In this document: positions 13,810-37,203 of the stretch, one piece after another | Position numbering within the stretch: the first letter of the stretch is position 1 | Layout of the letters: the number at the start of each line of letters is the position of its first letter | Source: Candidatus Magasanikbacteria bacterium RIFCSPHIGHO2_01_FULL_33_34 | GTDB taxonomy: Bacteria > Patescibacteriota > Patescibacteriia > Magasanikbacterales > UBA922 | Direction: 5' to 3' | Assembly: GCA_001782825.1 (NCBI GenBank) | Contig: MFPS01000002.1 | Span: forward strand, 1-41,112 | Length of the DNA stretch: 41,112 nucleotides | Made by a program: the position numbers and the translations under genes | Notes under the pieces: generated by a model | Told to the model about the DNA's origin: nothing | Databases searched by the model: none | Seen by the model: the letters and a program-made list of their open reading frames with translations, nothing else

Positions 13810-13843
13810 TAAGTTCTCTAAAAACATAAAGGCTTTATTTAAA

Positions 13844-13961
13844 AAGTCTGATAATTTTCTTTTTTACGGATTTGTTTACCACAACAGGCATCACCCTCGG
13901 AGCCTAGGCGAGAATCCTGCCTGCCGGCAGGCAGGGAGTAAAAAAGAAAATTATCAGACTT
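13844..13961 (+). repeat. Structured intergenic element, copy 1 (perfect 24-bp arms, degenerate core, nested 20-nt palindrome)
   Basis: AAGTCTGATAATTTTCTTTTTTAC / GTAAAAAAGAAAATTATCAGACTT; core CGGATTTG..CCACAACAGGC..CCTCGGAGCC..GCGAGAAT shared with the copies at 19155 and 23425. Confidence 0.85.
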
Positions 13962-14023
13962 AATTAAAATAGACAAATATAAATAATTCTATAATATTTT
14001 AAACAAAAGAATTTAAATAAAAA

Positions 14024-19154: not shown

Positions 19155-19258
19155 AATTAATGATTGGAGATTATCATGAGCGGATTTGATTGCCACAACA
19201 GGCAATCACCTCGGAACCACAGTGAGAATGAGCGAATGATAATCTCCAATCATTAATT
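19155..19258 (+). repeat. Structured intergenic element, copy 2 (perfect 23-bp arms, 58-nt core)
   Basis: AATTAATGATTGGAGATTATCAT / ATGATAATCTCCAATCATTAATT enclosing GAGCGGATTTGATTGCCACAACAGGCAATCACCTCGGAACCACAGTGAGAATGAGCGA. Confidence 0.9.
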
Positions 19259-21124: not shown

Positions 21125-21155
21125 AAAAACCACCACAATATACTGTGATGGTTTT
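21125..21155 (-). terminator. Terminator hairpin after asnS
   Basis: AAAACCACCACA-ATATAC-TGTGATGGTTTT. Confidence 0.6.
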
Positions 21156-21164
21156 AAAATTTAA

Positions 21165-21205
21165 AAATGTTTATATGTTTAAATGTTTGAATGTTTATAT
21201 GTTTA
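21165..21205 (-). repeat. Five 8-nt-period repeats (TAAACATW-like on the mRNA) starting at the asnS stop codon
   Basis: AAATGTTT ATATGTTT AAATGTTT GAATGTTT ATATGTTT A on +. Confidence 0.85.
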
Positions 21206-22492
21206 CGGTCTTACTCTGTTAATCATCCGAGGAAATGGAATAGTCTCACGAATATGATGTACCCCACAAATCCAACCAACCATACGCTCCAATCCTAGAC
21301 CAAAACCAGAGTGTGGTACTGATCCATATTTTCGCAAATCCAAATACCATTGATATTCTGGTCCTGAAAGCCCTTCTTTTTGAATTTCAGCTTTTAATAC
21401 TTCATAATCATCTTCACGCTGTGAACCACCAATCAGCTCTCCTGCGCCTTCAATTCCTATCAAATCATTATTTAATACAATCTCTGGATCAGTCGGGTCA
21501 ACCTTCATATAAAATGGCTTAATCGTTTTTGGCCACTTGTGAATAAATACTGGTACTGGTGAATCCTGTGTCAACATTCCTTCGTCATCATTACCCAAAT
21601 CCTCACCAAATTTAATATCAGATCCCAAATGATTCAACTTTTCAATCGCTTCTTTATAAGTTAACCGAGCAAATGGAAGTGTAAGCATTCTCTCAATCGG
21701 CGCAATATCCCGTTCTAATATTACTAACTCTTCTTTTACATTTTCTAAACATCTTCGTGCAATAAATTTAACCATTGCTTCTTGAATATCCATATTTTCA
21801 TCATGTTCTACATAAGCTGCTTCAGCATCCATCATCCAAAATTCTGTTAAATGTCTTTTTGTTTTACTTTTCTCAGCCCGAAATGTCGGACCAAAATCAA
21901 ATCCACGCCCAACCGACATAATAGCAGCTTCCAAATATAATTGACCTGATTGAGACAAAAATACCTCGCCCTCATCAAAATATTCAATTCCAAATAATGT
22001 AGTTGAACCTTCACAAGCATTTGGGGTTATAATCGGTGTATCAATTTTTACAAAATCTTGCTCATGAAAATAATCATAAATAGCCTGAATCACCTCATCA
22101 CGCACTCTCTGAATTGCCCACTGCTTTTTACTGCGAAGCCAAAGATGACGATTATCCAACAAAAAATCTGGTCCATGCTCTTTTTTGGTAATTGGGTATT
22201 CTTCAGCAATCTGAACAATCTCTACTTTTGAAACTTGCAACTCAAATACACCTTCCTGTTTTGGATGTTTACTAATACTACCAACAACTACCAATGAAGA
22301 TTCTTGAGTCAATTTTTCTACATTATTCCATACCTCTTCGCTCACCCCTGACTTTACTACTACAGCCTGAACAAAACCACTTCCGTCCCGTAGCTCCAAA
22401 AAAGCTATTGAACCAGATGATCGCTTGTTATACAACCAACCCTTAATCTCTACCTCTTGATTAACATATTGTGAAATATTTTTTATAAGCAT
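21203..22492 (-). CDS. asnS: Asparagine--tRNA ligase
   Basis: [58 protein letters not shown]. Confidence 0.96.
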
Positions 22493-22662
22493 ATAAACAT
22501 TTTAACATAAAAACATCTAAACATTACCACTTTTTTATACTTTTAACAAGTAGATAATTAAAGATAAAATCATACACAAAAAAATAACATAAATGCTCGT
22601 ATTTAACTATTTTTTAATAACAAGTATATTTGTATATTTAAATGTCTATATGTTTAAATGTA
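22485..22662. repeat. 8-nt-period inverted-repeat cassette spanning the recO stop to the asnS start
   Basis: Left arm ATAAGCAT ATAAACAT TTTAACAT AAAAACAT CTAAACAT (includes the asnS ATG); right arm ATATTTGT ATATTTAA ATGTCTAT ATGTTTAA ATG (includes the recO stop). Confidence 0.75.
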
Positions 22663-23413
22663 ATTCCCAATCTTCAATCTTCTTCTCACTATGAAACAAG
22701 ACAAATTCATAAATTAACTTATGAAGTTTTTTTTGTTCAACTTCCTCCATAGAAAAATCCTGTATTAGTCTCCAGTCATTTTTAAGCAATGCCTGTAAAT
22801 TTGATACTTCTCTCAAACCACAATCAACAATCTGTTCTCCTATGTGTTTTTTTTCTTCACGACACAAAGGACAAATTATTCCTCCACCAGCAAAATAAAA
22901 ACCAAGTTTTTTATTATTTAACAAATTATCTTTTGCCATTTCTTTATATGTTTTTTCACATATAACACAATAATCAAGTATCGGATAAAAACCAAGCACA
23001 GAAAATAAGTTTATTATGAAAGCATCAGTCAATATATTATTAAATTTATCACTTTTATCAACAAACTTAAGCCAACTTAAAAATAATTCAAATATTCTAC
23101 TATCTACTTCTTCAACTTCAGTCATCTGATCCAAAAAAGAACACAAAAATCCCGCATCCATACTCTTGTCAAAATTTTGTCTAATTTTAGCAAAAAAATT
23201 AATAGGAATTACTTTTGTCAAGTGCGCCACTCCTTTACCTTCTGCTATTTCAATTTGAACGTAAGAAAAAGGCTCCAAATGAGCCGAATTTTTACTTTGT
23301 ATTTTCTTGACACCACGTGCAAATAATTCAACCTTTCCAGACTCTTTGGTATAAAAAGTTATATGTTGATCAAATTCTTTAAAATTTCTACGTGCTAATA
23401 CTATTGCTTCCAT
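22646..23413 (-). CDS. recO: DNA repair protein RecO
   Basis: EAIVLARRNFKEFD..FYTKESGKV..ARGVKK..LEPF; Zn motifs CVIC and CPLC. Confidence 0.9.
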   Translation of the reverse strand: MEAIVLARRNFKEFDQHITFYTKESGKVELFARGVKKIQSKNSAHLEPFSYVQIEIAEGKGVAHLTKVIPINFFAKIRQNFDKSMDAGFLCSFLDQMTEVEEVDSRIFELFLSWLKFVDKSDKFNNILTDAFIINLFSVLGFYPILDYCVICEKTYKEMAKDNLLNNKKLGFYFAGGGIICPLCREEKKHIGEQIVDCGLREVSNLQALLKNDWRLIQDFSMEEVEQKKLHKLIYEFVLFHSEKKIEDWELHLNI

Positions 23414-23424
23414 ATTATATTAAA

Positions 23425-23530
23425 AATAAATCTAATAGGAATTATTATGAGCGGATTTGGTTGCCACAACAGGCAACCACCTCGGAGCCACAGCGAGAAT
23501 GAGCGAATGATAATTCCTATTAGATTTATT
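23425..23530 (+). repeat. Structured intergenic element, copy 3 (24-bp arms with one G-T pair, 58-nt core)
   Basis: AATAAATCTAATAGGAATTATTAT / ATGATAATTCCTATTAGATTTATT enclosing GAGCGGATTTGGTTGCCACAACAGGCAACCACCTCGGAGCCACAGCGAGAATGAGCGA; right arm overlaps the ruvX stop. Confidence 0.9.
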
Positions 23531-23888
23531 GTTTATCCAAATAAGTCTGCATAATCACCATCGCTGATTTCTCGTCGCGACTAACGTCACCACCCATACT
23601 ATCAGCTTGACGAGAACTAAATCTCTCATCAACAAACTCCAATGGTAAATTAGTTCTCTTTTTTAATTCTTCTGCAAATTCATTCACTCGCCTAGTATTA
23701 TCATTTTCTTTTGAATCCAATCCTAGTGGCATACCAAGCACAAGCTTGTCTATCCCTTCTTTATTTATAAGAGTAACCAATTCATCAATATTATTGACAA
23801 TACCATAAGGTAATACAACATCAAGCCCAACTTGAACCCAAGCTAATCCAATTCTTTTTTTACCATAATCAATACCTAACAAGTTCAT
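23526..23888 (-). CDS. ruvX: Pre-16S rRNA nuclease YqgF / RuvX
   Basis: LGIDYGKKRIGLA, LVLGMP, VDERFSS, SAMVIMQTYL. Confidence 0.92.
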   Translation of the reverse strand: MNLLGIDYGKKRIGLAWVQVGLDVVLPYGIVNNIDELVTLINKEGIDKLVLGMPLGLDSKENDNTRRVNEFAEELKKRTNLPLEFVDERFSSRQADSMGGDVSRDEKSAMVIMQTYLDKQ

Positions 23889-24040
23889 AGTGAATAGTTC
23901 ATAGCCAATAGGATTTATTTAAAGTTTATATACACTACCCGAATGACTTTTGTTAATATAATTTAATTTTTTATAAATAATTATCTGTGCTTCCAACTTG
24001 CAAAACTAACTATTAGCTCTTGGCTATCAATTATGAACTA
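23882..24040. repeat. 7-nt-period inverted-repeat cassette A (map-ruvX)
   Basis: AGTTCAT AGTGAAT AGTTCAT AGCCAAT AG ... CTATTAG CTCTTGG CTATCAA TTATGAA CTA; arms contain the ruvX ATG and the map TAA. Confidence 0.8.
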
Positions 24041-25421: not shown

Positions 25422-25712
25422 CTATTTATCAAATTTACTAAAATAATTTACAAAGGTGTTCATTAAAATTTTTTGATCATTTTCACTAATTTTATTTTTA
25501 TATTTGAGATTATATATAACTTTATATATATCACGCAAAGACAATTTACCATCTCCAGACCTATGACTTTCTAATTCAGAATAAACCAATTCTTCTTCAT
25601 CCTTAGTTAAAGATTCTACATTCAAATCTCTAAATATTTTTTTAAAATCTTCTAATGGAAATGGCTGTAATTTTTGTGAATACTTATTTGAAGGTGATGA
25701 AAATAAACCCAT
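25422..25712 (-). CDS. Hypothetical protein (96 aa, helical)
   Basis: ORF abuts adk; upstream promoter TTGCAA-17-TAATAT (25776-25748). Confidence 0.65.
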   Translation of the reverse strand: MGLFSSPSNKYSQKLQPFPLEDFKKIFRDLNVESLTKDEEELVYSELESHRSGDGKLSLRDIYKVIYNLKYKNKISENDQKILMNTFVNYFSKFDK

Positions 25713-25786
25713 ACTATATGGCTATATTATAGTTAATTAATAACAATATATTAACAAAGACTCGACTAATTTGCAAACCTTGTTAT

Positions 25787-25880
25787 ACAAACATCTAAAC
25801 ATATAAACATTTTTATAATAAATCCGCCTAATGGCGGATTTATTATGTTTAAATGCTTATATGTTTGTATGTTTAAATGC
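25787..25880. repeat. 8-nt-period inverted-repeat cassette enclosing a strong hairpin (probable terminator) after secY
   Basis: ACAAACAT CTAAACAT ATAAACAT - ATAATAAATCCGCC-TAAT-GGCGGATTTATTAT - GTTTAA ATGCTTAT ATGTTTGT ATGTTTAA ATGC. Confidence 0.85.
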
Positions 25881-25882
25881 AC

Positions 25883-27145
25883 TTATATCTTGTCGTATTC
25901 ATGAACTGTAACCTGAGCATCAATTTGTTTAGCAGAATCAATCGCCACACTCACAACTATCAACAGACTAGTACCACCAATAACTAATGCTTGTGAATTT
26001 GTAACCAATTGCATCAATAATGGCAATACAGCAACAGCTCCTAAAAATAAAGCGCCAATAAAAACAATTCTTGTCATTGTTTGTTGTAAATATTCTTCAG
26101 TTTGTTTTCCTGGGCGAATACCCGGTATAAAACCACCTTGTCTTTGTAAATTTTCAGCTATTTTTTCTGGATTGAAAATTACTGCAGTATAAAAATATGT
26201 AAAACCAAATACCAATGTAAAGTACATCACACCATAAAATAATTGATTTTGAAATAAATTTATTGTACCAATCGCCGCTCTTCCCAAAAAGCCTTCATTG
26301 CCTACAAAAAACTGAGCAATCATCGGTGGAAAAAGAATAATAGAAATAGCAAATATAATTGGGATAACCCCAGCCATATTCACACGCAATGGCAAATGAC
26401 TTTTAGCACCCTGCCCACCTCTGCCTTGTCTAGCATAACTAATAGGAATATTCCTTTGTCCTTCATTTATAATAACAATACCCACAACAGTTGCAATTGC
26501 AATCGCAACAAACAACAGATACGTTGATAAATCTGATGGATTGTAATTAACAGCCGCATTTCTAACAACGGTTGGAAGCGAAGCTACTATTGAAGAAAAA
26601 ATCAAAAGTGAAATTCCATTGCCTATCTTTTTCTCAGTAATCAATTCACCAATCCACATCAAGAATATAGTTCCAGCGGTTACAAACAACATCATGGTTA
26701 CCAGTCTAATTGAAGTCAAATCTCCAAAAATTCCTTGCTGTGAATTACTCAATAATTTCAAAAAACCATATGCTTGTAAAAATGCTAATGGCACTGTTGC
26801 TATTCTAGTATACATGTTTATTTTTTGTTGTCCTGATTCACCTTCTTTTGACATTTCTTCAAGCTTAGGCACAACCATTGTTAACAATTGAAAAATAATT
26901 GATGATGTAATATATGGAGCAATTCCTAACATTACCAAAGAAAAATTTTCAATAGTTCCGCCAGAAAATACATTCAACAAACCTAATATCTGATTACCAG
27001 CCAAAAAACTACTTAGAGCTTCTCTATCTACACCTGGCATTGGGATATGAGCTACCAAACGAAAAATAACTAGCATACCTAAAACAAAAAATATGCTATT
27101 TCTCAAACTTTTTATACCCCAGATTTTTTTAACTTTTTCCCACAT
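25883..27145 (-). CDS. secY: Preprotein translocase subunit SecY
   Basis: LGIAPYITSSII, GNGISLLIF, AGVIPIIFA, FIPGIRPG, GGTSLLIVV. Confidence 0.97.
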   Translation of the reverse strand: MWEKVKKIWGIKSLRNSIFFVLGMLVIFRLVAHIPMPGVDREALSSFLAGNQILGLLNVFSGGTIENFSLVMLGIAPYITSSIIFQLLTMVVPKLEEMSKEGESGQQKINMYTRIATVPLAFLQAYGFLKLLSNSQQGIFGDLTSIRLVTMMLFVTAGTIFLMWIGELITEKKIGNGISLLIFSSIVASLPTVVRNAAVNYNPSDLSTYLLFVAIAIATVVGIVIINEGQRNIPISYARQGRGGQGAKSHLPLRVNMAGVIPIIFAISIILFPPMIAQFFVGNEGFLGRAAIGTINLFQNQLFYGVMYFTLVFGFTYFYTAVIFNPEKIAENLQRQGGFIPGIRPGKQTEEYLQQTMTRIVFIGALFLGAVAVLPLLMQLVTNSQALVIGGTSLLIVVSVAIDSAKQIDAQVTVHEYDKI

Positions 27146-27606: not shown

Positions 27607-27629
27607 ATATATTACTTTATAGAGAATAC

Positions 27630-28615: not shown

Positions 28616-29158
28616 CTAAGCTGATTTAGCTGTTTTACCAGCTTTGCGTCTAATAGTTTCTTCAAAATATTTGATACCTTTACCTTTGTATGGCTCTGGT
28701 TTTCTGATTGATCTGATTTCTGATGCAACTCTGCCTAACAATTCATTATTAATACTTTCAAGTGTAATCAAATTCTTTTCAACTACAGCTTTAACGCCTG
28801 CAGGCATTTTGTATATAACTGGGTTTGAAAAACCAATATCAATTTTCAAATCTACGCCTTGTAGTGCTACTTTGTATCCTACTCCATTTATCTCTAGTTG
28901 CCTCTTAAAACCTTCAGTTACACCTTTAATCATATTTTGTATATGAGCAGAAAAAGTACCCCAGAGTGATCTTTCAAATTTATTTTCTTTGTTAACCACA
29001 TCAACCGTAACTTTACCTTCAGCTATATTTACAGTTACAAATTTATGCAAATCACGTTCCAATTGGCCTTTTGGTCCAGAAATAATAACTTTCCCTTCTT
29101 TTACAGAAACTTCTACACCACTTGGAATTTTTATAATTTTTTTACCTATACGTGACAT
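28616..29158 (-). CDS. rplF: 50S ribosomal protein L6
   Basis: MSRIGK, GPKGQL, RKPEPYKGKGIKY. Confidence 0.97.
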   Translation of the reverse strand: MSRIGKKIIKIPSGVEVSVKEGKVIISGPKGQLERDLHKFVTVNIAEGKVTVDVVNKENKFERSLWGTFSAHIQNMIKGVTEGFKRQLEINGVGYKVALQGVDLKIDIGFSNPVIYKMPAGVKAVVEKNLITLESINNELLGRVASEIRSIRKPEPYKGKGIKYFEETIRRKAGKTAKSA

Positions 29159-29167
29159 ATATTTATA

Positions 29168-29267
29168 TATTTATTAGTTCGGAGCCAATAGCCAGTAGGC
29201 TATTATATTAAACTTATTTATCTGATTTATGTCAAACTATTGGCTATGAACTTTTTGCTATGAACTT
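29168..29267. repeat. 7-nt-period inverted-repeat cassette B (rpsH-rplF)
   Basis: TATTTAT TAGTTCG GAGCCAA TAGCCAG TAG ... CTATTGG CTATGAA CTTTTTG CTATGAA CTT. Confidence 0.9.
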
Positions 29268-29272
29268 GTTAA

Positions 29273-29662
29273 TTAATATATTGAACAAATAACCTCTCCT
29301 CCAATTGAATCTTTTCTCGCTTTTTTGTTTGTCATCAAACCTTTTGAAGTAGACAAAATTGCAATACCATAATCATTCAAAATTTTTGGTATTTCATCTG
29401 ACTTACAATACTTTCTGTGCCCTGGTTTACTTTCACGTTTTATAGATTGTATAGCAGGTTTTTTACCAATATATTTAAGTTCCAATCTCAAAACTGGTGG
29501 CTTACTTTCAACCTTTTCTGAAGATTTGATATATCCTTCACTAACTAAAATTGAACAAATATTCATTTTTAATTTTGAATAAGTCAAGTCAACAGTTTTT
29601 TTGCCAACTGCTTGCGCATTACGGATACGTGTTAACATGTCTGCGATTGGATCTGTCATCAT
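29273..29662 (-). CDS. rpsH: 30S ribosomal protein S8
   Basis: DPIADMLTRIRNA, SKPG, STSKGLMT, GGEVIC. Confidence 0.97.
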   Translation of the reverse strand: MMTDPIADMLTRIRNAQAVGKKTVDLTYSKLKMNICSILVSEGYIKSSEKVESKPPVLRLELKYIGKKPAIQSIKRESKPGHRKYCKSDEIPKILNDYGIAILSTSKGLMTNKKARKDSIGGEVICSIY

Positions 29663-29666
29663 ATTT

Positions 29667-29770
29667 TAGTTCTTAGTTCTTGGCCAATAGCCAATAGTAT
29701 AATATATATTAATTATGTCTTAGCTTTTAGTTTATATCTTCTATTGGCTATAAACTATTGGCTATGAACT
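29667..29770. repeat. 7-nt-period inverted-repeat cassette C (rpsN-rpsH)
   Basis: TAGTTCT TAGTTCT TGGCCAA TAGCCAA TAG ... CTATTGG CTATAAA CTATTGG CTATGAA CT. Confidence 0.9.
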
Positions 29771-29775
29771 TTTAC

Positions 29776-29961
29776 TTACCAGCTTGATTTTCGTACACCT
29801 GGCAATTTACCATCATTAGCCAACTCTCTAAAACAAATTCTACACAAATTGAAATGTCTCATATAACCTCTTTTTCTACCACACTTCCAACAACGTCTAA
29901 CAATTCTTGTGCTAAACTTTGGTTTCTTTTTAGATTTTGCGATTTGTCCTTGAGTTGCCAT
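29776..29961 (-). CDS. rpsN: 30S ribosomal protein S14, Zn-binding (type Z)
   Basis: [26 protein letters not shown]; 61 aa. Confidence 0.96.
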
Positions 29962-29978
29962 AGTATAAATAATTTAAA

Positions 29979-30527
29979 TTATTTTTTATCACGAAATGGG
30001 AATCCCATTTTCTTTAACAGTGAAAAACTTTGTTCTTTATTTTTACCTGATATTACAAATGTCATTTCTAACCCATTAATTATATCACTGGTTCCTGCAG
30101 TAATTTCAGGAAAAGCTAATTGCTCTTTAATTCCAACTGTATAATTCCCTTGTTGATCAAAACCTTTTGGGTTAATGCCACGAAAATCCCGAATACGTGG
30201 AAAAGTAATATTTATTAATTTATAAACAAAATCATACATACGCTCACCTCTAATAGTTACAGATGAACCAATACTCATTCCTTCTCTTATTTTAAAGTTT
30301 GAAATTGACTTTCTTGATTTGTTTTCAATAGGTTTTTGACCAGATATTGCTGCTAAAACATCATTTACATGTTTAACATAATTTTTGTCCTTTGCATGTT
30401 TTCCATACCCAACATTAATTACCACTTTTTCTAATTTAGGTACTTGCATAACATTTTTAAAACCAAACTCTTCCTTTAAAAAAGGTGCAATTTCATTTTT
30501 ATATTGTTGGTATAGTACTGATTTCAT
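29979..30527 (-). CDS. rplE: 50S ribosomal protein L5
   Basis: VPKLEKVVIN, FKIREG, PRIRDFRG, GNYTVGIKEQ.FPEI. Confidence 0.97.
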   Translation of the reverse strand: MKSVLYQQYKNEIAPFLKEEFGFKNVMQVPKLEKVVINVGYGKHAKDKNYVKHVNDVLAAISGQKPIENKSRKSISNFKIREGMSIGSSVTIRGERMYDFVYKLINITFPRIRDFRGINPKGFDQQGNYTVGIKEQLAFPEITAGTSDIINGLEMTFVISGKNKEQSFSLLKKMGFPFRDKK

Positions 30528-30550
30528 AAACTATTTTGTAATTCAAATAT

Positions 30551-30868
30551 TTAAATAAATTCACCGCTTTTTTTAGAAACTCTTTTCTTTTCACTACCTT
30601 CCATCTTAAAACCAACTCTAGTAGATTTCTTTGTGTTCGGATCAATAATCATGACATTACTAATATGGATTGGAAAAGATAATTCAATTGTTTGACCTTT
30701 TTCACCAGATCTTTGAGTTTTTAAATGCTTTTTCCTAAGATTCACTCCTTCAACAACAACATAATTCTGACCATTACTTTTGGACTTCAAAACTTGTATG
30801 ACTTTACCAGTCTTACCATTATCTCGTCCACTTAATACTTTTACATTGTCACCTGTTTTTATTTTCAT
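30551..30868 (-). CDS. rplX: 50S ribosomal protein L24
   Basis: KIKTGDNVKVLSGRD.GK.GKV, VEGVN, PIHISNV. Confidence 0.96.
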   Translation of the reverse strand: MKIKTGDNVKVLSGRDNGKTGKVIQVLKSKSNGQNYVVVEGVNLRKKHLKTQRSGEKGQTIELSFPIHISNVMIIDPNTKKSTRVGFKMEGSEKKRVSKKSGEFI

Positions 30869-30879
30869 ACTTTACATTA

Positions 30880-31251
30880 TTATAATACCTCTGGAGCTAA
30901 TGAAACAATTTTTTTATAACCTACCCCACGCAATTCACGAGCAACTGGTCCAAAAATACGGGTTCCTTTTGGTTCTTTAGTTTTATTATCAATAATTACA
31001 GCAGCATTTTCATCAAATCTAATATAAGTACCATCTTTTCTTCTTTTTTCTTTTCTTTGACGTACAATTACAGCATGAACGACCTCACCTTTTTTAACCA
31101 TACCACGAGGTGCAGCTTCCTTCACAGAACAAGTAATAACATCACCAATTTGTGCATATCTTTTTTTGTAACCACCAAGTACACGAATACACATTAGCTT
31201 TTTTGCTCCTGTATTATCTGCTACTTGTAACATTGATGTGTGTTGAATCAT
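30880..31251 (-). CDS. rplN: 50S ribosomal protein L14
   Basis: [35 protein letters not shown]. Confidence 0.97.
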
Positions 31252-31283
31252 ACTATTTTAAACAGTGAAAGCCTAATCGGCAA

Positions 31284-31553
31284 TTACTTAATTACTTTTA
31301 CTAATCTCCATTTTTTTGTTTTACTTATTGGTCTGCATTCTAAAAATGATACTACATCTCCAACTTGTGCTATATTCTTTTCATCATGTACAGCATATTT
31401 CTTGCTAGTAGTATATTGTTTTTTATATTTTGGGTGCATTTTCTTTGTCTTTACTGATACATGAATTGTCTTATGTTCAGCAACACTAACAACCTCACCT
31501 TCAAATTGTCGGTGTATAGATTTTTTAATTGTTTCAGTTTGATTAGTAACCAT
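31284..31553 (-). CDS. rpsQ: 30S ribosomal protein S17
   Basis: HPKYKK, HDEKN..GD.V...ECRPISKTKKW. Confidence 0.96.
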   Translation of the reverse strand: MVTNQTETIKKSIHRQFEGEVVSVAEHKTIHVSVKTKKMHPKYKKQYTTSKKYAVHDEKNIAQVGDVVSFLECRPISKTKKWRLVKVIK

Positions 31554-31573
31554 ATTCTTTGTAACTTATTACT

Positions 31574-31759
31574 CTACTTTTTTGAATTTATTAATGTTAA
31601 TATTTGAGCAACTTCTTTTTTTAATTTTCTTATATCTCTCACATTTTTCAATTGTGCGCCACTTATACCAAATCTTAAATCACGCAACTTTGATTTTTTC
31701 TCAACTAACATTTCTTCTAAATCTTTTACAGATTTGTTTTTTAATTCATTATTATCCAT
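31574..31759 (-). CDS. rpmC: 50S ribosomal protein L29
   Basis: LRF....QLKN...IRKLKKEVAQILT; operon position. Confidence 0.92.
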   Translation of the reverse strand: MDNNELKNKSVKDLEEMLVEKKSKLRDLRFGISGAQLKNVRDIRKLKKEVAQILTLINSKK

Positions 31760-31763
31760 ATTT

Positions 31764-32174
31764 CTATTTCTTTACTACTTTAGCCTTTAAAGGCATCTTA
31801 TGTGAGGCTAAAATCAATGCCTCAATAGCTTTATCATCTGGAACTCCACCCATTTCGAACAAAACTGTTCCAGGTTTTACAGTACATACATAATGATCCG
31901 GAGCACCCTTACCTTTTCCCATAGGCATTTCACTACCCTTTGACGTAACTGGTCTATCTGGAAAAATTCTAATCCAAACTCTTCCTCCACGTCTTACATA
32001 TCTGGTAAGTACTCGACGAGCAGCTTCAATCTGTCTAGATGTTACCCATGAATGGTCCATCGCTTTCAAACCAAACCCACCAAAAGCTACAGTATTGGTT
32101 CTTGAAGCAATACCTTTATTCAATCGTCTTGGCTTATGCCATTTTCTATGTTTTACTTTTTTTGGCAATAACAT
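31764..32174 (-). CDS. rplP: 50S ribosomal protein L16
   Basis: QIEAARR, WIRIFPDRP, MGKGKG. Confidence 0.97.
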   Translation of the reverse strand: MLLPKKVKHRKWHKPRRLNKGIASRTNTVAFGGFGLKAMDHSWVTSRQIEAARRVLTRYVRRGGRVWIRIFPDRPVTSKGSEMPMGKGKGAPDHYVCTVKPGTVLFEMGGVPDDKAIEALILASHKMPLKAKVVKK

Positions 32175-32182
32175 AAATTCAT

Positions 32183-32881
32183 TTATTTAGTTTCTTTTTC
32201 TTTTTTATCTTCACTGTTGTTTTCCAATTTTGAAAATTGATCTTTTCTACCAAATATTTCACCATGATAAACCCAAACTTTCACACCAATCTTACCATAA
32301 GTAGTATTTGCTTCACAAAAACCATAATCAACATCAGATCGCAAAGTAATCAATGGAACTTTTCCAGCTGACAATTTTTCTGCTCTAGCAATTTCTACTC
32401 CGTTCAATCTACCAGACAAACCAATCTTAACACCTTTTGCTCCAGATTTCATTACTTTCTCAATTGACTGTTTCATCACTCTACGAAATGGCATGCGTTT
32501 TTCAATCTCAGATGCTACAGTCTGTGCAATTATAGCAGCTGACAAAGCTGGTGAATGAACTTCCTGAATATTCAATTTAACTTTCAAAGACATCTGTAAA
32601 AATTTCCTCTCAATATATTTTCTTAAATCCTCAAGACCTTGTCCACCACGTCCAATAATAAAACCAGGTTTAGCTGCAAAAACTGTTACGGTCATATTCT
32701 TTGGACCTCTGGCAATACCAATAGAATCAATATGAGCATCTCTATATTTCTTCATCAAAAACTCACGAATACGAATATCGTGTTCTGCATATTGTGCATA
32801 TTTTTTCTTTCCAAACCATCTAGAATCCCAAGTATAAATAACTTGCATTCTATTAATTCTTGGATGAACTTTATGTCCCAT
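32183..32881 (-). CDS. rpsC: 30S ribosomal protein S3
   Basis: MGHKVHP, PGFIIGRGG, SGRLNGVEIAR, TTYGKIGVKVW. Confidence 0.97.
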   Translation of the reverse strand: MGHKVHPRINRMQVIYTWDSRWFGKKKYAQYAEHDIRIREFLMKKYRDAHIDSIGIARGPKNMTVTVFAAKPGFIIGRGGQGLEDLRKYIERKFLQMSLKVKLNIQEVHSPALSAAIIAQTVASEIEKRMPFRRVMKQSIEKVMKSGAKGVKIGLSGRLNGVEIARAEKLSAGKVPLITLRSDVDYGFCEANTTYGKIGVKVWVYHGEIFGRKDQFSKLENNSEDKKEKETK

Positions 32882-32890
32882 ATATTTATA

Positions 32891-32981
32891 TAGTTATTAG
32901 TTCGGAGCCAATAGCCAGTAGGCTATTATATTAAACTTATTTATGTCAATCTATTGGCTATGAACTATTTGCTATTAACTT
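32891..32981. repeat. 7-nt-period inverted-repeat cassette D (rplV-rpsC), near-identical to B
   Basis: TAGTTAT TAGTTCG GAGCCAA TAGCCAG TAG ... CTATTGG CTATGAA CTATTTG CTATTAA CTT. Confidence 0.9.
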
Positions 32982-32982
32982 G

Positions 32983-33444
32983 TTAATTAACTTTTTCACC
33001 TTTGATTTCTTCTACTTCAGCATCTTTTACATTTTCTTTGGCTTCATTTTCTTTATTACCTTTTGTTTTTTCTTTTATTTTTTTCTTTGCTAATTTTTCA
33101 TCAACTTCACCTTCCAAAACCAATGTAATATGTGATGTCCTTTTACGGATTGGTGTAGCTCTTCCCATAGCTTTTGGAGTCCATCTATGTAATGTTTCTC
33201 CGCCATCTACGAAGGCTACTTTAATTACTAATGTCTCTGGTTTAATCTGATGATTGTGTTTAGCATTAGCAATAGCTGATTTTAACAATTTTAATACTGG
33301 TTCTGAAGAATGCTTACTGGAAATTTGTAACTGAGCAATAGCCTTATTAACTTGCATCCCACGAATAAGGTCGATAAGCAAACGCACCTTTCTTGGGGCT
33401 ACTCTTAATTTTCGTAATGTTACTTTTGTTTGTAGTTTTTCCAT
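32983..33444 (-). CDS. rplV: 50S ribosomal protein L22 with charged C-terminal extension
   Basis: APRKVRL..DLIRG, SAIANA.HN, GRA.PIRKRTSHIT. Confidence 0.96.
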   Translation of the reverse strand: MEKLQTKVTLRKLRVAPRKVRLLIDLIRGMQVNKAIAQLQISSKHSSEPVLKLLKSAIANAKHNHQIKPETLVIKVAFVDGGETLHRWTPKAMGRATPIRKRTSHITLVLEGEVDEKLAKKKIKEKTKGNKENEAKENVKDAEVEEIKGEKVN

Positions 33445-33796: not shown

Positions 33797-33802
33797 ATTT
33801 AA

Positions 33803-33900
33803 TAGTTCTTAGTTCATAGTTCAAAACCAATAATTAATTATTTTAAAGTTCAATTACCATTTACTTATTTCTATTGGCTATGAACTATTGGCTATAAACT
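33803..33900. repeat. 7-nt-period inverted-repeat cassette E (rplB-rpsS)
   Basis: TAGTTCT TAGTTCA TAGTTCA AAACCAA TAA ... CTATTGG CTATGAA CTATTGG CTATAAA CT. Confidence 0.88.
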
Positions 33901-33916
33901 TTTTAATTATTTCCTT

Positions 33917-34753: not shown

Positions 34754-34760
34754 ACTTTTA

Positions 34761-34854
34761 TAGTTCTTAGTTAATAGTTCGGAGCCAATAGTCAGTAGTT
34801 TATTGAAAATTATTATGTAATTTCTATAAACTATTAGCTATTGGCCATGAACTA
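34761..34854. repeat. 7-nt-period inverted-repeat cassette F (rplW-rplB)
   Basis: TAGTTCT TAGTTAA TAGTTCG GAGCCAA TAGTCAG TAG ... CTATAAA CTATTAG CTATTGG CCATGAA CTA. Confidence 0.9.
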
Positions 34855-34855
34855 T

Positions 34856-36765: not shown

Positions 36766-36823
36766 AACCTTTAGCATTATAAGCTTTTGTATATTATATT
36801 TTGTCTTTTCTAATCATTATATT

Positions 36824-37104
36824 AAAAAAGCCAGAAGACAACCCTAACCATTTCAGCCAAAGGCTGACCAGCCATAGGCTGGAATTTAAACTAATTTATA
36901 ATAAACGATCCATACAGACAAAAATCTGTTTAAATCTTATAAAAAATATGTTTAAATTTATTGTTAGTACTACCTTCTAGCCATTTTGGCTTATTTTGTA
37001 GTTTGTTTTGGTTGCTTTTTCCTCTTGTGCCTAAATAACTCACTAGATGTTTTTAAACTCTTTCGAGTTAATCTTATCTAACTTGTCTTATAGACATTTA
37101 AACT
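36824..37104 (-). promoter_or_regulatory. Long structured rplC leader with an attenuator-like stem and U-tract
   Basis: 36981-36963 pairs with 36848-36830 (18/19 bp including several G-U on the minus strand), followed by U6; further internal stems. Confidence 0.6.
36853..36882. repeat. 30-nt twin-hairpin palindrome, copy 2
   Basis: TCAGCC-AAA-GGCTGA CCAGCC-ATA-GGCTGG. Confidence 0.8.
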
Positions 37105-37110
37105 GTGCCA

Positions 37111-37139
37111 ATTTTACATTATTTTAAAATATCTGTCAA
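37111..37139 (-). promoter_or_regulatory. Sigma70 promoter between rpsJ and rplC
   Basis: TTGACA(37139-37134)-17-TAAAAT(37116-37111). Confidence 0.75.
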
Positions 37140-37203
37140 GTCTTTTTAATATTTTAATAATTGTGTTAAATTAGCTAATTTTATTGTACGAAATTAAACC
37201 TTA

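Follow-up and report, generated by a model that had tools for sequence, protein, structure and literature searches.

Co-transcribed, non-coding palindromic repeats of about 100-150 nt occur in several bacterial groups, including the Correia/NEMIS repeats of Neisseria, ERIC/IRU of enterobacteria and YPAL of Yersinia. Smaller palindromes of the REP/BIME type (20-40 nt) depend on a RAYT (Y1) transposase, and heterocystous cyanobacteria carry STRR, tandem heptanucleotides that include a TTGGTCA-type unit. Intervening sequences (IVSs) are found within ribosomal RNA: the one in Coxiella burnetii 23S rRNA lies in helix 45 and has a stem with tandem GACAGAT heptamers, which RNase III cuts at the first repeat (PMC4990558, in excerpt). 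The same excerpt cites further 23S IVSs that bear an open reading frame (ORF) in Leptospira, and it describes the function and spread of rRNA IVSs and their S23p/PF05635 gene as unexplained for about 30 years (PMC4990558). In another source, the PF05635 domain is called functionally uncharacterized (bioRxiv 10.1101/2024.02.27.582315). Here we describe IVS-like elements between protein-coding genes of Candidatus Magasanikbacteria bacterium RIFCSPHIGHO2_01_FULL_33_34 (assembly GCA_001782825.1), a very small bacterium from groundwater, centred on the window, the whole 41,112-nt stretch of contig MFPS01000002.1 (positions 1 to 41,112, forward strand) that was analysed.

The window makes up contig C2 of a genome of 1,005,716 bases in nine contigs, with 33% G+C and 99.8% completeness. 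In its S10-spc ribosomal-protein operon, the spacer between rpsH and rplF (copy E) and the spacer between rplV and rpsC (copy C) are near-identical. With a probability of roughly 0.62, copies C and E reflect the recent copying of a complete stop-to-start module, which belongs to a gene-less palindromic element of ~100 nt that resembles both an IVS and a miniature inverted-repeat transposable element (MITE). This reading starts from direct observations: the anatomy of the elements, their dispersed family, the family's link to PF05635 gene cassettes, its presence and absence among relatives, and its polarity to host genes. The element can be filed as a variant of the IVS by its build and of the co-transcribed MITE by its behaviour, located outside rRNA.

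Several traits recall ORF-bearing IVSs as the Coxiella excerpt portrays them: a long terminal stem of tandem heptamers (TAGTTCA/TAGCCAA in the arms of the present family), a PF05635/S23p four-helix-bundle gene in the loop of the full-size form (here two sibling loci and one remnant), an ORF prone to decay, and a sporadic distribution. Unlike an IVS, the element lies between protein-coding cistrons rather than in an rRNA helix, and copies C and E lack an ORF; RNase III excision, demonstrated for Coxiella according to the excerpt, would apply to the present family by analogy. Imperfect hairpins with internal loops between cistrons also recall the RNase III sites of phage T7, the best analogy for how the stem may act, although the T7 sites are unique, non-mobile and not built from heptamers, and cleavage of the present stems is conjectural. 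These T7 sites are intercistronic and lie in the early mRNA (Dunn and Studier 1973, cited in the excerpt of PMC4990558).

The comparison with co-transcribed repeats is equally two-sided. Like Correia, ERIC and YPAL, the family has inverted-repeat ends, many dispersed copies, intergenic sites that are probably transcribed, predicted folds in mRNA, and a presence that varies between genomes. Unlike them, it has arms made of 7-nt arrays in variable register, shows no visible target-site duplication, has a gene-bearing partner that encodes PF05635 instead of a transposase, and fills stop-to-start junctions with a polarity to the genes. As in MITEs, a short non-coding unit with terminal inverted repeats is dispersed in copies that are present or absent at orthologous sites; the transposase-encoding partner with the same ends that MITEs have is lacking. 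REP sequences are likewise intergenic, repeated and hairpin-forming, whereas the present elements reach ~100 nt and the genome gives 0 matches to PF01797. The TTGGTCA-type unit of STRR resembles the family's TTGGCTA, and no STRR-PF05635 link turned up in the literature listing. Literature searches, which covered listings outside subscription journals and excerpts of bioRxiv 10.1101/2024.02.27.582315, PMC10910872 and PMC4990558, turned up no account of IVS-like hairpins lacking a gene in mRNA spacers, nor of Patescibacteria MITEs.

Aligned on the gene strand, C and E match from TTAATTAACAAG to ...TATAAATAT-ATG and differ by four substitutions in about 105 aligned bases and one 9-nt indel, exactly the near-identity that an earlier note on this DNA had described. 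Chance likeness is excluded, as a within-genome blastn aligns the two at 88.6% identity over 114 columns (E = 3e-32), and the flanks beyond TTAATTAA and the ATG do not align. The rpsH gene stops at the first TAA of TTAATTAA (29275-29273) and rplV at the second (32985-32983), so that the boundaries drawn in the earlier note, with a different TAA used by each gene, also hold. In copy E, the gene strand reads TTAATTAA, 5' arm units AAGTTCATAGCAAAAAGTTCATAGCCAATAG, a 45-nt loop, the 3' arm CTATTGGCTCCGAACT, an A/T tail and the rplF ATG. The loops of the two copies (36-45 nt) contain no ORF, and the indel looks like a slippage-type event. The pair is the only full-length match of its kind in the genome, and the other family members have only arms in common.

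The ends of the host proteins add to this picture. The S8 C-terminus, ...CSIY*, is common to this genome and to G111 and G210, two genomes of the same genus, and is followed by TAA and then directly by the element. The Lys/Glu-rich tail of L22 is variable; here it falls 15-28 aa short of the G210 and G111 tails and terminates within TTAATTAA of copy C, which by sequence fits a stop codon supplied by the module.

Two similar spacers in one operon invite the suspicion of a repeat collapsed or placed twice by the assembler, and short-read contigs do break within the common stretch at both loci. The stretch is contained in 17 DNA runs from eight studies. Logan contigs from runs X1 and X9, which come from separate studies, end at 29192-29200 and 32915-32923, inside the ~50 bases common to both copies, yet they recover all four unique flanks with 0 differences. 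One X10 contig spans the whole rplV>rpsC spacer (32804-33300) with 0 differences; the rpsH>rplF spacer is not crossed in full by any listed Logan contig. The copies are also distinct at four sites and a 9-nt indel. The alternative join, rplV>rplF together with rpsH>rpsC, is contradicted by the gene order of every Patescibacteria locus covering these junctions (22 loci covering both and 23 covering rpsH>rplF, of 27 Patescibacteria among 80 loci). Mis-assembly is very unlikely because the flanks are recovered, copy C is bridged and the alternative join breaks the gene order; independent assemblies support both copies, with the bridge at C only. The element repeats nevertheless split short-read assemblies right at the ribosomal-protein marker genes used in binning and phylogeny.

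Copies C and E are the youngest pair among ~15 loci with long imperfect hairpins whose arms are tandem 7-nt units, TAGTTCA/TAGCCAA. Their place in a dispersed family tied to PF05635 gene cassettes extends the earlier note, which had suggested a search for further copies. In the S10-spc spacers, each member has a 5' arm of TAGTTCA/TAGCCAA heptamers, a 3' arm of their complements, extra AACTA units, and an A/T tail that runs to the ATG. The core 16-mer AGTTCATAGCCAATAG, allowing up to 3 mismatches, gives 56 matches in the genome, compared with 6-16 in five shuffles. These cluster in 15 loci: 12 gene-less hairpins of 75-233 nt on five contigs, one solo arm, and two loci with arms ~400 nt apart. 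The 5' terminus TAATTAAC is recurrent, being repeated at the stop end of the genome's own rpmI>rplT copy and of the G210 rpsH>rplF copy.

All five long spacers of the S10-spc operon (rplW>rplB, rplB>rpsS, rplV>rpsC, rpsN>rpsH and rpsH>rplF) are imperfect hairpins, and TAGTTCGGAGCCAATAG occurs in the rplW>rplB spacer, the 'cassette F' that had been said to share a motif with the pair. The remaining gene-less copies lie, one each, at rpsL>rpsG, rpsG>fusA, rpmI>rplT, nusG>rplK, ybaB>recR, mreB>glycosyltransferase and map>ruvX. Judged by Pfam neighbours, nine of the 12 gene-less hairpins belong to translation operons, spread over four distinct ribosomal loci: S10-spc (5), str, rpmI-rplT and nusG-rplK. 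In other genomes, sampled at one locus each, the sites with a Pfam-identified gene nearby include nrdA>nrdB, rnpA>yidD and thyA>folA, together with positions next to secF, dnaK, ruvA, dnaB, msrA, ychF and clpB.

The solo arm (CTATTGGCTCTGAACTATTGGCTAAGAA on the gene strand) lies at C7:67176-67224, within the first 16 codons of an epimerase-like ORF and just before a GxxGxxG motif that was identified by eye. It may have been absorbed as an N-terminal extension of this ORF.

The two loci with widely spaced arms connect the family to the protein of 23S-rRNA intervening sequences. Between family arms, C7:117806-118159 encodes a 117-aa PF05635 (23S_rRNA_IVP) protein (E = 6.7e-38), and C7:195036-195386 (L130) holds a second copy that is 77% identical, again between family arms. 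The map>ruvX element contains a 74-nt remnant with 81% nt identity to the second ORF (tblastn E = 4.8e-5), whose alignment score of 71 exceeds a shuffle maximum of 41; by its sequence, this element appears to be an intermediate from the gene-bearing to the gene-less form. The map stop codon, TAG, falls within a TAGTTCA unit there, and the ruvX ATG falls within a CTATGAACT unit.

The association also extends across the taxonomic family. Of 86 genomes, 57 carry PF05635, in as many as 17 copies per ~1 Mb genome, and 26 of 30 sampled loci have flanking inverted repeats that score above the best of 20 shuffles. These repeats lie 10-79 nt from the match and consist of ~7-nt units whose sequence varies by cassette, with eight of the TAGTTCA/TAGCCAA type. 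PF05635 accompanies the arm motif in 20 of 21 genomes, compared with 26 of 50 genomes that lack the motif (Fisher p = 3.3e-4, overstated by the relatedness of the genomes), according to counts tabulated by hand from the motif and PF05635 scans.

Some further observations concern these cassettes. The second gene-bearing copy lies just downstream of folA and has ATT in place of the paralogue's ATG but is otherwise open, which points either to a rare start codon or to the onset of decay. Genome G028 has a gene-less family copy at thyA>folA (L105). Gaps of 380-496 nt at rplV>rpsC in L048, L058 and L081 proved to be the N-terminal half of S3. A comparison of the C/E loop with the arm-to-ORF stretches of gene-bearing cassettes gave only a weak likeness (score 35) over very short stretches.

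Among relatives, the arm 16-mer (at most 1 mismatch) is patchily distributed: of 201 genomes from the order, 41 contain it, covering 23 of 102 genera and two families, with up to 43 matches per genome, and a reversed-pattern control gives 1 match in total. The occupied junctions differ among this genome (G000), G111, G210, G073, G028, L004 and L009. In G111 (~70% nt identity), copies lie at rplB>rpsS, rplN>rplX and rpsH>rplF, and rplW>rplB (10 nt), rplV>rpsC (33 nt) and rpsN>rpsH (43 nt) have none. In G210 (74-83% identity), copies lie at rplX>rplE and rpsH>rplF, whereas rplV>rpsC (26 nt) has none and rplW>rplB is empty (3 nt). The G073 operon has a family copy at rplN>rplX and the G028 operon has none, and more distant Patescibacteria have copies of this element family at rplN>rplX (L004) and rplF>rplR (L009). 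Hairpin families with other repeat units fill similar junctions in relatives.

This comparison of junctions, which the earlier note had proposed, indicates from sequence that the rplV>rpsC copy is the new one, since both congeners lack an element at that junction and have one at rpsH>rplF. Together with four differences in ~105 bases within the pair, it agrees with the recent copying that the note had suggested. The note had also named two findings that would speak against it, a mis-assembly and an equally ancient conservation of both spacers; neither is seen. Genome G210 contains a further member of the C/E subfamily, complete with its loop, which sits at an unrelated junction, with a thioredoxin-like gene (identified by eye) on one side and the next gene on the other, and aligns with C over the whole length (local alignment score 108).

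Gene conversion, in which one of two older family copies was overwritten by the other with no new insertion, is an unlikely explanation of the pair. It would account for homology that is limited to the element and stops where unrelated genes start, and for the lack of old-spacer residue at the flanks of copy C. It also draws on rpsH>rplF itself, which is occupied in all three genus members with a different loop in each, suggesting that contents can be replaced at occupied sites. However, it requires an additional, unseen prior insertion at rplV>rpsC, which is element-free in both congeners, and the C/E-type copy at the unrelated G210 site shows that the whole unit is able to reach new sites.

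Variation below the genus level may exist as well. The region 29660-29776, which covers the rpsN>rpsH element, is replaced by 16 letters in contigs from X1 and X12 and by 4 letters in one X1 contig. This gives a weak hint of strains or species with an empty rpsN>rpsH junction; the contigs were compared at 85% likeness, at which other organisms are possible.

The stop-to-start character claimed in the earlier note is borne out at the level of the family. Across 25 aligned copies drawn from 11 genomes, the 5' arm, which is conserved, begins at the upstream stop or within ~17 nt of it, and 5-25 nt separate the end of the AACTA-rich tail from the ATG. Predicted RNA folds have z values from -3.5 (C and E) to -6.9. 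In 18 of 27 copies, 30 nt suffice to close all three reading frames, compared with 13% of composition-matched shuffles, and the median distance to three-frame closure is 25 nt compared with 59 nt in shuffles; this rapid closure results from the TAG-bearing heptamers, as 7 = 1 mod 3. On the gene strand, AACTA exceeds TAGTT in 18 copies, with the reverse in 4 and a tie in 4 (26 copies, one near-duplicate dropped). A shared TTAATTAAC was considered as a sign of the copying direction and dropped: the rpmI>rplT copy and G210 rpsH>rplF have this terminus too, and it belongs to the family's 5' end.

The downstream end of the module is compatible with the note's further suggestion that the unit carries its own translation initiation region. 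Shine-Dalgarno (SD) cores precede 43 of 734 long ORFs, compared with 5.5% of random 17-mers, although the 16S 3' end reads CACCTCCTT; by the sequence upstream of its ORFs, the organism does not use SD sites. Start contexts are rich in A/T and have T at -1 in 79%, a pattern that the element tails follow. In the predicted folds, the 17-20 nt that precede the ATG stay unpaired, and positions -20 to -1 consist wholly of element sequence. What stands of the suggestion is that the tail belongs to the element, is predicted to be unpaired and suits SD-less starts; an active role in initiation would be a further step.

These features could also mark intercistronic RNA elements kept by the host for processing, stabilising or insulating its messages and for tuning ribosomal-protein stoichiometry, which then spread by recruitment. 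This is a tentative alternative, well short of an even chance. The share of gene-less copies in translation operons (9/12), the constant polarity to the genes (18 vs 4), the unpaired tail before the ATG and the frequent three-frame stops all suit it, as do the occupation of rpsH>rplF in three species and the presence of other hairpin families at the same junctions in relatives. Against it, occupancy varies within the genus and the G028 operon lacks any copy, the loops are unconserved, no mRNA-strand-specific G-U signature is seen, and there is no Rfam family match. At gathering score, Rfam finds only rRNA and tRNA, and it finds nothing on the elements at E <= 1, known ribosomal-protein leaders included.

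Under recent copying of a complete module, the family would be gained and lost at the stop-start junctions of co-directional housekeeping operons, chiefly ribosomal-protein operons. A module consisting of the TAATTAA stops, a frame-closing 5' arm, the loop, the 3' arm and an unpaired tail, rich in A/U, that ends in T-ATG would have been placed recently at rplV>rpsC in this genome's own lineage, while its congeners keep a short spacer. Copy E, or else a sibling from its subfamily, was probably the donor, and C and E would afterwards have diverged by the four substitutions and one slippage indel. The event at rplV>rpsC may have replaced the gene end and spacer rather than inserted cleanly, because no older spacer is left on either side of copy C.

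The element is probably co-transcribed with its operon, given that it contains no terminator or promoter signal. A scan for GC-rich stems with a U-run after them found no terminator-like sites in the spacer elements, and promoter-like sites showed no excess (37, with 33.9 expected) and none in the elements. The TTGACA and TATAAT in the C/E loop were considered as a promoter and rejected: they stand 22 nt (E) or 13 nt (C) apart where 16-18 nt is needed, and are probably due to chance; the alternative in E with 17-nt spacing, TTTAAT, was not called. In the transcript, the imperfect stem of 20-30 bp may be an RNase III substrate, following the Coxiella IVS stem, and the tail may act as the SD-less initiation region of the downstream gene. 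The genome has an rnc (RNase III) gene at C9:23667-24059, and its own 23S gene (C6:11-2599) contains no arm motif. The element itself would be mainly selfish or neutral.

A number of results weigh against this account. Between the same ends, the gene-bearing partner encodes PF05635, for which no transposase or catalytic role is known, and no PF05635 ORF occurs in 80 sampled S10-spc loci, large gaps included. No target-site duplication is recognisable at C, E or other copies, where A/T-rich ends would hide short ones, and the lack of older-spacer residue at the flanks of copy C suits replacement better than simple insertion. In other genomes, taking one locus per genome, a ribosomal-protein gene adjoins only 5 of 30 (rpsL, rplB>rpsS, rplN, rplF>rplR and rpmE>prfA), a weaker bias than in this genome. 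No RNA run in the run listing contains the stretch, which leaves co-transcription and cleavage as predictions. The C/E stem is among the weakest in the family, with about 14-20 bp and a 2x2 internal loop. RNAalifold on a MAFFT alignment of the 25 copies retained only 4 consensus pairs, since the pairing register differs between copies, and structural statements are based on per-copy folds. Finally, in 20 of 27 copies the more stable fold is that of the antisense strand, and the sense folds contain 67 G-U pairs where the antisense folds contain 97; among transposases, the scan covered the Y1 family (PF01797) and gave no match.

The strand comparison gave no support to selection on the mRNA strand. 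As modelled, the palindrome looks like foremost a DNA-level feature rather than an RNA structure kept by such selection, because antisense folds are better and contain more G-U pairs, and the register varies between copies. The active form could then be a single-stranded DNA hairpin on the template strand, moved by a strand-specific enzyme in the manner of IS200/IS605, REP-RAYT or integron attC, with the RNA hairpin as a by-product. The better antisense folds with more G-T/G-U pairs are what this predicts, and the hypothesis would also account for the biased orientation and for arms that keep every letter across genera next to unconserved loops. Even so, it is improbable: the 99.8%-complete genome yielded no Y1/HUH transposase, outside the arms, no tetranucleotide stands out as a conserved cleavage site, and selection on mRNA explains the orientation bias equally well.

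A broader and doubtful proposal is that heptamer-armed hairpins, with or without PF05635, form one widespread, mobile class of junction modules. These would home to the most transcribed DNA (rRNA genes and ribosomal-protein operons) and carry three-frame stops, an RNase III stem and an SD-less tail, and the four-helix-bundle protein would be a trans-acting factor that reads heptamer arrays to copy or maintain them. The rRNA IVSs would then be the rRNA-resident minority of this class.

The observations place an IVS architecture, with and without the gene, at sites other than rRNA, and the probable copying of a full stop-to-start module is very recent, with limits that can be read to the base. 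This offers a handle on the nature of the mobile unit, on how such elements are tolerated in essential, tightly packed operons of 1 Mb genomes, and on a possible reshaping of operon mRNA processing in bacteria that make no use of Shine-Dalgarno sites.

Table 1. Elements and adjoining genes in the window (positions in the 41,112-nt stretch)
Feature	Position	Strand	Remarks
Copy E, element in rpsH>rplF spacer	29159..29276	-	From alignment; spacer proper 29159-29272, TTAATTAA extends to 29276; stem at 29176-29266; fold -21.7 kcal/mol, z -3.47
Copy C, element in rplV>rpsC spacer	32882..32990	-	From alignment; spacer proper 32882-32986, TTAATTAA extends to 32990; stem at 32899-32980; fold -22.0 kcal/mol, z -3.55
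9-nt indel CTGATTTAT (as read on + strand)	29222..29230		In E, missing from C; between two ATTTAT direct repeats
Family member in rpsN>rpsH spacer	29663..29775	-	Same arms, unrelated loop; z -3.99
Family member in rplB>rpsS spacer	33797..33916	-	Junction occupied in G111 too; z -4.09
Family member in rplW>rplB spacer ('cassette F')	34754..34855	-	TAGTTCGGAGCCAATAG at 34775-34791; z -6.85
Element in map>ruvX spacer	23870..24040	-	Decayed gene-bearing cassette (by sequence), same arms; 74-nt PF05635 ORF remnant in loop
rpsH (S8)	29273-29662	-	Pfam
rplF (L6)	28616-29158	-	Pfam; downstream of copy E
rplV (L22)	32983-33444	-	Pfam
rpsC (S3)	32183-32881	-	Pfam; downstream of copy C

The host operon is otherwise of ordinary layout. 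Its minus-strand gene order, tuf-rpsJ-rplC-...-rpsH-rplF-...-secY-adk-map, is the usual one by Pfam, and the best relatives of S8 in the species collection are Candidatus Paceibacter and Magasanikbacteria metagenome-assembled genomes at 57-67% identity. The rpsE-rplO spacer (27607-27629) is 23 nt long and holds no rpmD (L30), as in the compared Patescibacteria operon loci; the absence of rpmD is a hallmark of the candidate phyla radiation. Between secY and adk, a 96-aa ORF (25422-25712, minus strand) has no Pfam match, and ORFs of 100-116 aa, also without a Pfam match, occupy the same position in L003, L004, L007, L015, L021 and L028.

Other repeats share this neighbourhood. Three copies of a different palindromic element of ~100 nt lie at 13833-13972, 19155-19258 and 23419-23536, with a G+C-richer core (CGGATTTG.TTGCCACAACAGGCAA.CACCTCGGA.CC) between inverted repeats of their own; Rfam gives no match to them at gathering score. 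A second hairpin family, with arms of tandem ATGTTTA(N) units, is found at 21151-21205, 22486-22540, 22625-22665 and 25785-25884; its copy after secY contains a GC hairpin, AAATCCGCC-ATTA-GGCGGATTT, and Rfam matches there are sub-threshold only and miRNA-like. In the same operon of the sister species G210 (contig C42, locus L163), a G+C-rich element of ~100 nt (…GACCAACGAGATCCCTCGCTCGGTC…CCGCTCGGGATGACAGATTT…) is present in six copies, at rplD>rplW, rpmC>rpsQ, rpsQ>rplN, rplE>rpsN, rpsE>rplO and rplO>secY; from rplD to secY, the G210 operon has spacers of ~100 nt at nine junctions in total.

The rpsJ>rplC spacer (36778-37203, 426 nt) contains paired GC hairpins of the CCAGCC..GGCTGG types and has no Rfam match. 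The same junction is also long (267-376 nt) and strongly folded in G111, G028 and G210, and the spacer may be a conserved leader or non-coding RNA.

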